Shown here: in pieces, positions 60,279-62,948 of the stretch
How the letters are laid out: each line of letters opens with the position of its first letter
Numbering within the stretch: position 1 is the first letter of the stretch
DNA from: Lactobacillaceae bacterium
Lineage (GTDB): Bacteria > Pseudomonadota > Alphaproteobacteria > RF32 > CAG-239
Length of the DNA: 64,000 nucleotides
NCBI GenBank assembly: GCA_031271345.1
Contig: JAISVX010000003.1
Location: forward strand, 437,223 to 501,222
Direction: 5' to 3'
Program-made: the position numbers and the translations under genes
The notes under the pieces: model-generated
The model's database searches: none
What the model saw: the letters and a program-made list of their open reading frames with translations, nothing else
Told to the model about the DNA's origin: nothing

Positions 60279-60881
60279 TTACGCTTCCACAGTTTTTTCT
60301 TCCGCCATTCTTTTCTTTGCCGCGTTCTTATATTCTTTCATGTATTTAGTCATATAGTAAACTTCTTCTTCAGAAAGCTCAAATTTATGATATTTTACAT
60401 TACTCAAAATGCCTATTCTCACTCTCTTTATTTTTTCAACGTCTAAATGCCTAACTTTCTCTTCATAAAAATCGGCAAAATTAAATGTTGTTTTAGTGTC
60501 GGTAGCGCTTTTAATTCTGGTAGGATCCATGCTGACCGCCCTAATATCCATCAAATTAACTTCCTGAATTTCTTTGGTGGCAAAAGAAGCGCTCTCCATT
60601 ATTTTTGACGTATCTAAAAAGAACATTACCGCATTTGAAATTTTTAGCGGAATCCTTCCATTATCTCTCAAGTTTAGACATAATGACGGCAGACCCGTTT
60701 TGGGATTGTCTGTAAAGTATGCGAACTCGAGCTTCAGCCAGTTCTCTACATTATTCTCGCGATATGCTTTATATGACACTATAGCGGAAAAAATACACAG
60801 CAGCATTGTTCCTATTGCCACAAAGGTCTGAGTGACAATGTAAGAAACCTCAAAACTATTCCATAAATAATCTTCAACCAT
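60279..60881 (-). CDS. Hypothetical protein with one N-terminal TM helix
   Basis: 200 aa. The TM helix is VSYIVTQTFVAIGTMLLCIFSAIV. The C-terminal part is hydrophilic and Lys/Glu-rich. The start is 1 nt after the upstream gene's stop. Confidence 0.45.
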   Translation of the reverse strand: MVEDYLWNSFEVSYIVTQTFVAIGTMLLCIFSAIVSYKAYRENNVENWLKLEFAYFTDNPKTGLPSLCLNLRDNGRIPLKISNAVMFFLDTSKIMESASFATKEIQEVNLMDIRAVSMDPTRIKSATDTKTTFNFADFYEEKVRHLDVEKIKRVRIGILSNVKYHKFELSEEEVYYMTKYMKEYKNAAKKRMAEEKTVEA

Positions 60882-60882
60882 C

Positions 60883-61491
60883 TTAGTTTTTATATCCCAA
60901 AGCCTGAATTACCTGAACCTGCATGCCTTTAGGCAGTTTTAACACCTCGCCGAGTTCTTTAATATTGGCATAGCCGATAACAACGTTGCCCAAGTCGGCA
61001 GAGGCTGCATACAACCCGACATTCTGAGCTGCGGCGCCCGTATTAAACTTACTGTAAGAATCGCCGAGCTTTTCGGCATAAACAAGTATCATGGCTGTTT
61101 TCTCAAGCATATCTGTCTGTTTTCCGGCATCTGCCCTATAATCCTCGGAAGAAATAATCTCCAATTTGTTTGCCTCGGAGTTATAAAAATACATTCCGCT
61201 TGGCAAAAGAGCATACACACTTAGATTCTGCTCATTTTTAGCAGTAGGAATCGTTCTTTTCTTAACCCCGTCTCTATTTATGCCAAAAGCGGACCACAAA
61301 ACATTTGATATAGTTTGCGGATCAAACTCTTTTCCGCTGAATTCCCTATGCGAAGAGCGCAGGCTTAGAGCTTCCATCAAAGGCTTTCCGCCTGTTTTTT
61401 GAGGCTCTGGAAGCTTAATATCTCCCTCGGCAGCAAAACTTGAGCCAATTAAAATTACAGACAGTATAAAGCCTAAAAGAATTTTTTTCAT
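60883..61491 (-). CDS. Signal-peptide-bearing (presumably exported) nitroreductase-fold protein, hypothetical
   Basis: Start taken at the ATG at 61491 (GGAG ribosome-binding site 8 nt upstream). Signal peptide MKKILLGFILSVILIGSSFAAEG. MEALSLRSSHREFSGKEFDPQTISNVLWSAFGINR and LGNVVIGY fit the nitroreductase-family N-terminal motif (L-x-x-R-R-S-x-R-x-F) and dimer-interface pattern. Confidence 0.5.
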   Translation of the reverse strand: MKKILLGFILSVILIGSSFAAEGDIKLPEPQKTGGKPLMEALSLRSSHREFSGKEFDPQTISNVLWSAFGINRDGVKKRTIPTAKNEQNLSVYALLPSGMYFYNSEANKLEIISSEDYRADAGKQTDMLEKTAMILVYAEKLGDSYSKFNTGAAAQNVGLYAASADLGNVVIGYANIKELGEVLKLPKGMQVQVIQALGYKN

Positions 61492-61643
61492 ATTTTTTCT
61501 CCATTTTAAACAAAACTTATAAACAATAATAACCATTTTATTCAAAAATACTACAGCAATCAAAAAAATCCCCCAATTTCTTAAGAGATTTTTCCAACGC
61601 AAACTTTATGTTTATCCATAAAGCTGAAGTTCCGCCGTCAAAA

Positions 61644-62846
61644 TTATAAATTTTCTTTTTTTCCTTTAGCGGAAAAAATGTTCTTTATAAAGGAAACGCC
61701 GCTTTGGGGTTTTCTTGCGGGTTCTTCGCTAATAACCAAACCATCATCAAAACCATTTGCAGAATCATGGTTTTCACTCATTTCTTTTTTTCTGGCATTA
61801 ATCTTTAAGATATGCAAAAACCTTTCAGCCCTTGCGTTTAGACCTGTGTTATCTTTTATTTTTGGCGACAAATCTTTTTCTTCATATCCGCAGGTATCTG
61901 GATTATAAATATCATAAGTAAAATATATTGATTTATACGCTTCGTACTCTTTGTTTGTATCTTTATTTTTCACTTCGCCGTTTAGCTCGGCATATCCTTT
62001 TGTCTTTGCTTCAAACTGCCCGCCCTCGGCTCTATAAAACTCCCCGCCAGAAAACTCGTTCCAATTTTCCGCAGAGCCATTTATGAGATAATCCATATCC
62101 ATGACAAAAGCTTTTCTGTCTTCCAAAGAGGTTTCTTTCAGCTTGTTTTTAAGCCAGTTATACCTTGTTCCGGGAAAGGCTTTAAAAGAATTATAATCTC
62201 CGCCTTTATGATATGCCTCGACAACCTTCAATATTTCGGCAAAATATGCCGATTTCTCGCTGTCTTCACAACTCTTATAATAGTCTTCTGCATTAAGCGC
62301 GCCGTTAGTTTTCTCTCTCTCGGCAATTTTAAGATTTGCGGAAAGATGATGAGCTTCATGGGCAAAATGATATGGTTTTTGACGAGCTTCAATGTTCACA
62401 TAATAAAAATACGTAAACGCCAGATCATTTTCTCTTTTTGATAACTTTGCCGCAAAAGCTTCCCTTTCTTCCATAGGAATGCCCATTATATTTTCCGAAT
62501 TTATTTTTGCTTTATTATAATCGTCTCTATCCATAACAAGGATAATATCTTTTATATCAATATTTTTTCCATAAGCTCCTCCGCCGGAAATATGCGACGG
62601 ATTTATTTCTTTGCCTATTCTTATGTCGATAAATACGCTTCTTTTTAAGATTTCATCATATTTTACTTTAAGAAATAAAAACTCTCTATTAATCTGACAA
62701 TCTTCTTCTTTTATGTTTGCAGGAACGGCACTGTCAGGAATTATATAATCAGGGTAGCAAAAAACCACATCGTCAAAATGTCTGGATTTTTCTTTTTCGA
62801 TTGCGGCTTTTATTTTTGCATTGTCTTTCAGTTCGTTTTTATACAT
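61644..62846 (-). CDS. Hypothetical 400-aa protein with a HExxH (zincin-like) motif and no signal peptide
   Basis: YHFAHEAHHLSANLKIAEREK... is an HEAHH motif followed by several Glu residues 15-40 aa downstream, which are candidates for the third ligand. The protein is Lys/Glu/Asp/Tyr-rich, and I recognise no known family. Confidence 0.45.
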   Translation of the reverse strand: MYKNELKDNAKIKAAIEKEKSRHFDDVVFCYPDYIIPDSAVPANIKEEDCQINREFLFLKVKYDEILKRSVFIDIRIGKEINPSHISGGGAYGKNIDIKDIILVMDRDDYNKAKINSENIMGIPMEEREAFAAKLSKRENDLAFTYFYYVNIEARQKPYHFAHEAHHLSANLKIAEREKTNGALNAEDYYKSCEDSEKSAYFAEILKVVEAYHKGGDYNSFKAFPGTRYNWLKNKLKETSLEDRKAFVMDMDYLINGSAENWNEFSGGEFYRAEGGQFEAKTKGYAELNGEVKNKDTNKEYEAYKSIYFTYDIYNPDTCGYEEKDLSPKIKDNTGLNARAERFLHILKINARKKEMSENHDSANGFDDGLVISEEPARKPQSGVSFIKNIFSAKGKKENL

Positions 62847-62918
62847 GACATTTCCAGTAAATATTCCTTATGTAAACATATTACACAAAAAAAATAGAAT
62901 CTCAAGACAAAATTAGAC

Positions 62919-62948
62919 AAAATTGATACAGGTTAATATATCAATTTT
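62919..62948. promoter_or_regulatory. 10-bp perfect inverted repeat upstream of the 61644-62846 gene
   Basis: AAAATTGATA-N10-TATCAATTTT. It lies about 75-100 bp upstream of the ATG at 62846 and 67 bp downstream of the mutL stop. Confidence 0.3.

Follow-up and report, generated by a model that had tools for sequence, protein, structure and literature searches.

Do the three adjacent genes between mutL and lpxK in an uncultured alphaproteobacterium form one operon, and what might their products do? The genes lie within a 64,000-nucleotide (nt) stretch of contig JAISVX010000003.1; the whole stretch analysed is referred to as the window. The three open reading frames (ORFs) are as follows.

61644-62846, minus strand: ORF1, 400 amino acids (aa), with FAHEAHH at residues 161-167 (HEAHH, residues 163-167)
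60883-61491, minus strand: ORF2, 203 aa from ATG 61491, a nitroreductase-fold (SagB/ThcOx-like) protein with a signal peptide
60279-60881, minus strand: ORF3, 200 aa, a single-pass membrane protein with a transmembrane (TM) segment at about residues 14-37 (60771-60842)

A sequence-only reading of this DNA had described a tightly coupled operon of three genes preceded by a palindromic operator. The three minus-strand ORFs are present as described, and so is the 1-nt gap between the ORF2 stop codon and the ORF3 ATG. The three genes are real, and the locus is probably two separate units. That reading is largely right in what it observed and partly right in how it interpreted the locus. Our favoured explanation, held with moderate confidence, is that the slot downstream of mutL in this alphaproteobacterial clade contains two independent transcription units. 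Unit A would be ORF1 alone, a putative gluzincin with its own promoter and terminator, regulated through a promoter box. Unit B would be the ORF2-ORF3 bicistron. For comparison, we use related stretches from other genomes, labelled L001-L006, L090, L091, L093, L095, L096, L097 and so on.

Transcriptional organization of the locus

ORF1 and ORF2 are separated by 152 nt. Two features are found in this gap.

61556-61604, minus strand: intrinsic-terminator-like hairpin (A-run, stem, T-run) about 40 nt past the ORF1 stop codon; folding free energy -16 kcal/mol, z = -5.1
61526-61563, minus strand: predicted ORF2-ORF3 promoter-like region, with TTGATT, a 17-nt spacer and TAAAAT, then a conserved (T)ATTAT

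A consensus scan misses the hairpin because its stem is poor in G-C pairs. In L001 and L004, an equivalent hairpin has the same place and structure, with different stem sequences. Downstream of the hairpin, about 40 nt before the ORF2 start, the ATTAT element is kept in all six aligned lineages, including ones without ORF1.

The content of the mutL-ORF2 slot varies among relatives. The slot holds ORF1 in the window, L001, and L004, and a paralogue together with ORF1 in L002 and L003. It is empty in L005 and L006, and in L095 it holds an unrelated 125-aa ORF with a signal peptide instead of ORF1. ORF3, on the other hand, follows ORF2 wherever the contig reaches (the window, L001, L004, L005, L006, and L096). 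Elsewhere, the genes of the ORF1 family stand alone, beside dnaG/rpoD, groEL, fmt/lon, or grpE/ftsK, and profile searches at 89 loci place no relative of ORF1 or ORF3 beside other ORF2 homologues. The terminator, the conserved ORF2 element, the variable slot, and the stand-alone ORF1 relatives thus argue for two units, ORF1 alone and the ORF2-ORF3 bicistron. Only the ORF2-ORF3 pair has neither a terminator nor an internal promoter between its genes and also co-occurs. The operon of the sequence-only reading is therefore reduced to this pair: an examination of synteny, which that reading had proposed, finds ORF2-ORF3 kept across relatives and ORF1 absent from some of the mutL-ORF2-ORF3 loci.

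We consider it quite improbable that ORF1, ORF2, and ORF3 constitute one co-regulated module, such as a protease working with a maturase-like flavoprotein and a membrane component on a common substrate under a palindromic operator. The three genes do share a strand, their synteny is kept in L001 and L004, and in L002 and L003 the ORF1 stop codon runs into the ORF2 start. The module would nevertheless have to accommodate the terminator between ORF1 and ORF2, the ORF2-ORF3 pairs without ORF1 in L005, L006, and L095, the absence of ORF2 or ORF3 relatives beside ORF1-family members elsewhere, and products that are predicted to reside in different compartments. The proposed operator is the following element.

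62919-62948, no strand given: perfect 10-bp inverted repeat AAAATTGATA-N10-TATCAATTTT, unique in the window

The palindrome is statistically unusual, as shuffling the 168-nt intergenic region gives an equivalent inverted repeat in 0.8% of cases. The repeat itself is thus as perfect as had been noted. Its role as an operator fares less well, since it is not found in the orthologous ORF1 promoters of L001 and L004, where the adjacent direct-repeat box is invariant. As RNA, it would form only a weak hairpin (-9.5 kcal/mol, z = -1.95), which makes it unlikely to be the mutL terminator.

Three points weigh against the assignment of two units. First, the ORF1 orthologue of L002 and L003 overlaps ORF2 by 4 nt, indicating that co-transcription does occur in that lineage. 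Second, read-through of the terminator in the window is conceivable. Third, MutL identity is 79.5% for the ORF1-bearing L001/L004, 73% for the ORF1-bearing L002/L003, and 74% for the ORF1-less L005/L006. As ORF1-bearing lineages lie on both sides of the ORF1-less ones by this measure, ORF1 may be ancestral at the slot and later lost, rather than inserted.

ORF1, its family, and its promoter box

ORF1 has no match in Pfam, NCBIfam, PDB, PADLOC, or PHROG. A genome-collection scan seeded with ORF1 yields no relative, and none is found among plasmids, phages, or IMG/VR. Close homologues number only three, with 48-53% identity. An exhaustive profile search extends the family to 76 cluster representatives, 53 of them with E <= 1e-10. 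Most members are 440-900 aa long, with about 70 additional residues at the N-terminus and C-terminal tails that vary. Pfam domains are absent from all 67 members checked, and the family profile retrieves nothing from PDB. A signal peptide is predicted in 0 of 67 members and a TM-like segment in 1 of 67. In L002 and L003, ORF1 is accompanied by a tandem paralogue with 29% identity, which retains HELHH and the downstream Glu. A match of ORF1 to Colicin_immun (E 0.0024) is under the cutoff and recurs in only 3 of 67 members, and is regarded as noise. By these searches, ORF1 is a member of a previously undescribed protein family. What is new in this locus is ORF1 and its promoter box; the novelty is moderate, and the function is a prediction.

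The HEAHH motif in the 400-aa product and the lack of a signal peptide had both been pointed out from the sequence, and this zincin-like motif proves to be kept family-wide together with a downstream Glu. A set of 67 family sequences, with 17-55% identity to ORF1, shows no variation at E164 and E197 and at least 90% conservation at each of H163, H167, A200, Y271, N315, and P316. In a separate 13-sequence family alignment, the HExxH motif (H163-E164-x-x-H167) is invariant. E197 comes 29 residues after HExxH. In gluzincins (thermolysin, M3, M27), the spacing between HExxH and the Glu is about 19-35 residues. The ORF1 family thus resembles gluzincins such as thermolysin (M4), botulinum toxin (M27), and anthrax lethal factor (M34) in its HExxH, its Glu at +29, and its conserved Tyr. 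As this combination equals the gluzincin pattern, we read ORF1 as a putative gluzincin.

The predicted topology would fit this reading. In the AF2 model (predicted local distance difference test, pLDDT, 63; predicted template modelling score, pTM, 0.57), a four-stranded sheet is followed by a long helix carrying HExxH, and E197 opens the helix 197-215. The gluzincin topology is likewise a beta-sheet, a motif helix, and a Glu helix. Single family members also have Pfam matches below threshold, to SprT-like and Peptidase_Mx1. ORF1 is accordingly predicted to be a gluzincin-type zinc metallopeptidase, either cytoplasmic or non-classically exported. H163, H167, and E197 would bind zinc, E164 would serve as the general base, and Y271 may stabilise the transition state. 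The predicted active site is simple (H163, E164, H167, E197, and Y271).

Against this assignment, the model is only moderately confident, and it is poor around E197 (pLDDT 41-45). In addition, no significant sequence or fold match ties ORF1 to any known peptidase (Pfam, NCBIfam, PDB, Foldseek), and the family is set apart from gluzincins by the lack of detectable homology, in sequence or in structure, to a described family. A Foldseek search with the ORF1 model finds nothing significant in PDB (best E 0.7) and nothing in BFVD; the structure prediction that the sequence-only reading had suggested thus gives a model for ORF1 and no fold assignment. ORF1 might alternatively not be a peptidase at all, and its conserved His, Glu, and Tyr might serve metal-dependent regulation or binding, or other hydrolytic chemistry. 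The empty fold search and the missing peptidase-family match fit this possibility, and HExxH motifs are found in non-peptidases too. We regard it as rather unlikely, considering that a highly diverged family (17-28% identical) retains the classical gluzincin pattern, namely the full HExxH and, 29 residues later, a Glu that opens the following helix.

If the putative gluzincin is catalytic, it would represent a new peptidase family covered by no database. We regard as unlikely the bolder proposal that ORF1 founds a new zinc metallopeptidase family confined to a lineage of uncultured, probably gut-associated Alphaproteobacteria, with members that are scattered, fast-evolving, sometimes duplicated in tandem, and organised as a TTTTGTCYA regulon. 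If this were true, the lack of Sec signals, the variable tails, and the box regulon would suit antagonistic toxins or exported effectors that have a regulator of their own.

A related possibility is that host-associated Alphaproteobacteria secrete ORF1 as an effector or as a metalloprotease of toxin type. Export would then bypass Sec, and the basic conserved C-terminal tail might be the signal for it. ORF1 is the quickest-evolving gene of the locus, with 48-53% identity against 70-80% for its neighbours (ORF2, 70-72%; ORF3, 72-78%; MutL-C, 73-80%). L002 carries a tandem duplicate of it, N- and C-terminal extensions vary within the family, no member has a signal peptide, and a C-terminal K..IF..K.K motif sits after a disordered linker. 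Anthrax lethal factor is the only enzyme that recurs among the top Foldseek matches, with non-significant scores (E 0.8-4.6). The Foldseek probability of these matches is just 0.01-0.02, however, no secretion-system genes are seen in the loci examined, ORF1 has no plasmid, phage, or viral relatives, and host association is deduced solely from the names of related metagenome-assembled genome records. An effector role is therefore improbable in our view.

Independent of its biochemical role, the putative gluzincin gene has a conserved upstream region.

62878-62905, minus strand: predicted ORF1 promoter-like site from a consensus scan, with -35 TTGAGA (62905-62900), a 16-nt spacer, and -10 TAATAT (62883-62878)
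62903-62922, minus strand: tandem direct repeat TTTTGTCTAATTTTGTCTTG, comprising two TTTTGTC boxes at -76 and -66 from the ATG

The position of the promoter-like site is conserved in L001 and L004. The two TTTTGTC boxes are 10 nt apart; the proximal one abuts the -35-like TTGAGA, and the distal one is overlapped by 4 nt by the proximal arm of the inverted repeat. The window, L001, and L004 share a near-invariant TTTTGTCTAATTTT(C)GTCTTG, with one extra C in L001. A TTTTGTCYA box lies at -76, -77, and -78 in the window group and at -79, -79, and -82 from the start codons of ORF1-family genes at unrelated sites (L090, L091, and L097), giving four independent sites overall within -76 to -82. The latter three have only a single box. 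As the background density of the box is 0.2 per kb per strand, its fixed position is very unlikely to arise by chance. The box is absent from the ORF2 promoter. These positions suggest a shared regulator of the ORF1 family: the genes, scattered singly across genomes, would answer to a common regulator through the TTTTGTCYA box. A family locus without the box, L093, speaks against such a regulator. If ORF1 is catalytic, the family and its shared box would offer a handle on the biology of uncultured Alphaproteobacteria, and the box could lead to the regulator.

In spacing and in contact with the -35 element, the ORF1 boxes are like response-regulator or activator sites in which a direct repeat recurs after one helical turn, e.g., Pho boxes. 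The Pho box is CTGTCAT; the TTTTGTC sequence differs from it, and L090, L091, and L097 have a single box only. A copy of the ORF1 promoter repeat with three mismatches (TTTTATCTAATTTTGTCATT) is also found at 17609-17628 of the window, inside a long minus-strand ORF (15609-17852), and is likely a chance match.

ORF2 and its membrane partner ORF3

The ORF list opens ORF2 at a TTG, giving 239 aa. The true start is ATG 61491, giving 203 aa, because all homologues begin with MKK; a GGAG lies 9 nt 5' of this ATG. The N-terminus is signal-peptide-like, MKKILLGFILSVILIGSSFA being followed by AEG, with the signal peptide at residues 1-21 (61429-61491) and the highest 19-residue hydropathy window at residues 4-22. 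The remainder matches the Pfam family Nitroreductase (PF00881) with 52.3 bits (cutoff 23.5; E 1e-13; residues 46-201). Thus, the 203-aa product does combine a signal peptide with a nitroreductase fold and contains LRSSHREF, as had been noted. In PDB, ORF2 matches 3HOI (E 1.9e-25), 3HJ9, and 8CQS, with E values from 1.9e-25 to 2.3e-23. The sequence-only reading had assigned none of the three products; this holds for ORF1 and ORF3, which match no known family, whereas ORF2 is readily assigned through Pfam and PDB.

The same reading had called a signal peptide on a nitroreductase fold odd. All three PDB alignments begin at ORF2 residue 22, the first predicted mature residue. 3HOI was deposited as 'FMN-dependent nitroreductase BF3017' (FMN, flavin mononucleotide) from Bacteroides fragilis, and 3HJ9 is from Ralstonia eutropha. 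A database search returns 199 relatives at E <= 1e-10, of which the named ones are 'nitroreductase family protein' or 'SagB/ThcOx family dehydrogenase'. The family comprises at least 570 loci in species-representative genomes of Alphaproteobacteria, Bacteroidales, Acidobacteriota, Verrucomicrobiota, and others, and a Sec-type signal peptide and an LP.P motif are present in 20 of 20 diverse aligned members. As the signal peptide is universal in the subfamily, it is normal rather than odd. Secreted nitroreductase-fold flavoproteins are common and structurally solved, which corrects the apparent oddity. ORF2 aligns with the 3HOI-like secreted family (3HOI, 3HJ9, and 8CQS) over its whole mature length and is alike in size (about 200 aa), signal peptide, and flavin motifs; it also fits the mature domain of about 180 aa that begins near (I/L)xLPxP. 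It differs in that its identity to the solved proteins is moderate and that the pairing with ORF3 is specific to this alphaproteobacterial clade.

The flavin site of ORF2 looks intact. Motifs that contact the flavin phosphate and the isoalloxazine ring are defined from NfsB-type enzymes. In 20 diverse family members, the motifs RxSxR, RTxP[ST]AxNxQ, and GxxxQN show little or no variation; ORF2 carries LRSSHRE and RTIPTAKNEQ, with the first Arg, R80, P83, A85, and N87 unchanged in all of these members. FMN-contact residues, which the earlier reading had proposed to look for, are thus present and conserved across the 20 members.

The same reading had offered a non-redox binding protein as a solution to the supposed oddity. 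A flavin-free ORF2 would agree with Sec export, which delivers unfolded protein so that flavin would need to be acquired outside the cytoplasm, and with the lack of an obvious electron donor. Such a protein is very unlikely, given that the flavin motifs are conserved as above and the closest solved structure was deposited as FMN-dependent. Moreover, SagB/ThcOx-type enzymes oxidise substrates without needing NAD(P)H (reduced nicotinamide adenine dinucleotide, or its phosphate). For ORF2 we infer Sec export, cleavage behind Ala21 and, in the periplasm, a dehydrogenase or oxidase chemistry that uses FMN and is independent of NAD(P)H. The protein would belong to a SagB/ThcOx-like branch of the nitroreductase superfamily.

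The likeness to SagB/ThcOx azoline dehydrogenases of thiazole/oxazole peptide pathways consists of the nitroreductase fold with FMN and a weak profile match. A true SagB enzyme is rejected: ORF2 scores 37.1 bits against TIGR03605 (SagB/ThcOx azoline dehydrogenase; cutoff 78.4), and neither a YcaO cyclodehydratase nor a precursor peptide gene is present at the window locus, where the neighbours are mutL, ORF1, ORF3, and lpxK. Furthermore, SagB enzymes are cytoplasmic, whereas ORF2 is exported. In the paper on ThcOx, 3HJ9 appears only as a molecular-replacement model (PMC5108345). A literature search on 8CQS, BF3017, and periplasmic nitroreductase-like proteins gave nothing relevant and no functional study of this subfamily.

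Across 89 loci, ORF2 has no conserved neighbours beyond lineage-specific synteny. The conserved ORF2-ORF3 pairing gives one lineage-specific clue to ORF2 function. ORF3 has only four homologues (59-78% identity) besides those in L005 and L006, with no match in Pfam, NCBIfam, PDB, PADLOC, or PHROG and nothing in a metagenome scan. It is membrane anchored, as had been noted, by a single hydrophobic stretch (about residues 14-37). In 5 of 5 sequences, this stretch has Lys and Arg on its C-terminal flank only, an arrangement suggestive of an N-out, C-in topology. ORF3, a single-pass membrane protein restricted to this clade, is coupled to ORF2 in translation. Through this coupling, it would be made in step with ORF2 and would sit in the inner membrane with its bulk probably in the cytoplasm. 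The AF2 model of ORF3, with a pLDDT of 44.7, is unusable, being too poor for a structure search.

Two points count against these functional assignments: no neighbour conserved across taxa hints at an ORF2 substrate, and the topology of ORF3 is derived from the positive-inside rule only.

Other gene pairs containing nitroreductase-domain genes were observed among the comparison loci. In another gut alphaproteobacterial group, a 357-aa HEALH protein without a Pfam match is encoded immediately 5' of the ORF2 homologue and on its strand (L007-L009, L025, L031 at 4859-5932, and L042 at 4887-5948), the motif being HEALR in L042. This protein was considered as a distant ORF1 relative and rejected, with an hhalign probability of 0.25% and Arg replacing the second His in L042. 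As it is unrelated to ORF1, an 'HExxH protein plus secreted nitroreductase' as a conserved pair is rejected as well. In L091 (1476-2499), a 200-aa nitroreductase-domain gene is preceded by an overlapping 144-aa ORF without a Pfam match. An ORF1-family gene is located about 4 kb away from this pair, on the other strand, probably by coincidence.

Flanking DNA and further elements of the window

The ORFs are flanked by the following features.

63015-63995, minus strand: 3' part of mutL
58550-59512, plus strand: lpxK
60229-60255, both strands: bidirectional terminator hairpin with an 11-bp stem and T-runs on both strands, 24 nt past the ORF3 stop codon

The mutL part lies upstream on the same strand as ORF1-ORF3, and lpxK converges from the opposite side. 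Their earlier identification stands, as they are 73-80% identical to genes that contain the Pfam domains of MutL and LpxK. The GC content is 34.9% for ORF1, 35.7% for ORF3, 37.1% for lpxK, and 39.2% for the window; the three ORFs are inside the local range, and the locus is not clearly foreign. A scan of the flanks for tRNA, tmRNA, and Rfam RNA found nothing. A defence-system or phage origin of the locus is rejected, as there is no PADLOC or PHROG match. Outside the questions of ORF1 and ORF2-ORF3, the locus is ordinary chromosomal DNA.

The AT-rich flanks had been taken as a sign of an accessory island. The 767-nt AT-rich gap toward lpxK is instead the site where L001 and L096 hold a gene of 448 and 404 aa, respectively, without a Pfam match. 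This gene lies between ORF3 and lpxK (L001, 11054-12400; L096, 746-1960) and is absent from the window (59770-60228), which keeps its upstream promoter region. What the window contains there instead is a patch of higher GC content, with a 57-aa ORF (60034-60207, plus strand) that ends at the bidirectional terminator.

Downstream of lpxK, the non-coding segment 59522-59770 is 85% identical to L001 over 215 nt, with about 75 nt identical, a conservation far above that of the neighbouring proteins. On its minus strand, an RNA of about 110 nt could be made between a promoter-like TTTACA, 17-nt spacer, and TATTAT (59672-59644) and a terminator (59557-59532). This RNA would comprise an 18-bp hairpin and the terminator (-40.1 kcal/mol, z = -7.5). 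It has no match in Rfam even at E <= 1 and is a candidate small RNA.

At 59656-59689, divergent promoter-like sites flank a perfect palindrome, TGTAACAAAA-N14-TTTTGTTACA, whose conservation in L001 is 100%. This palindrome is more operator-like in appearance than the one at 62919-62948. Far from the locus, two near-identical 40-nt palindromic copies, CCATTAAAAAATCCCACCAGA(C/T)GGTGAGATTTTTTAATGG, are located about 175 nt apart at 30898-30937 and 31073-31112 of the window.

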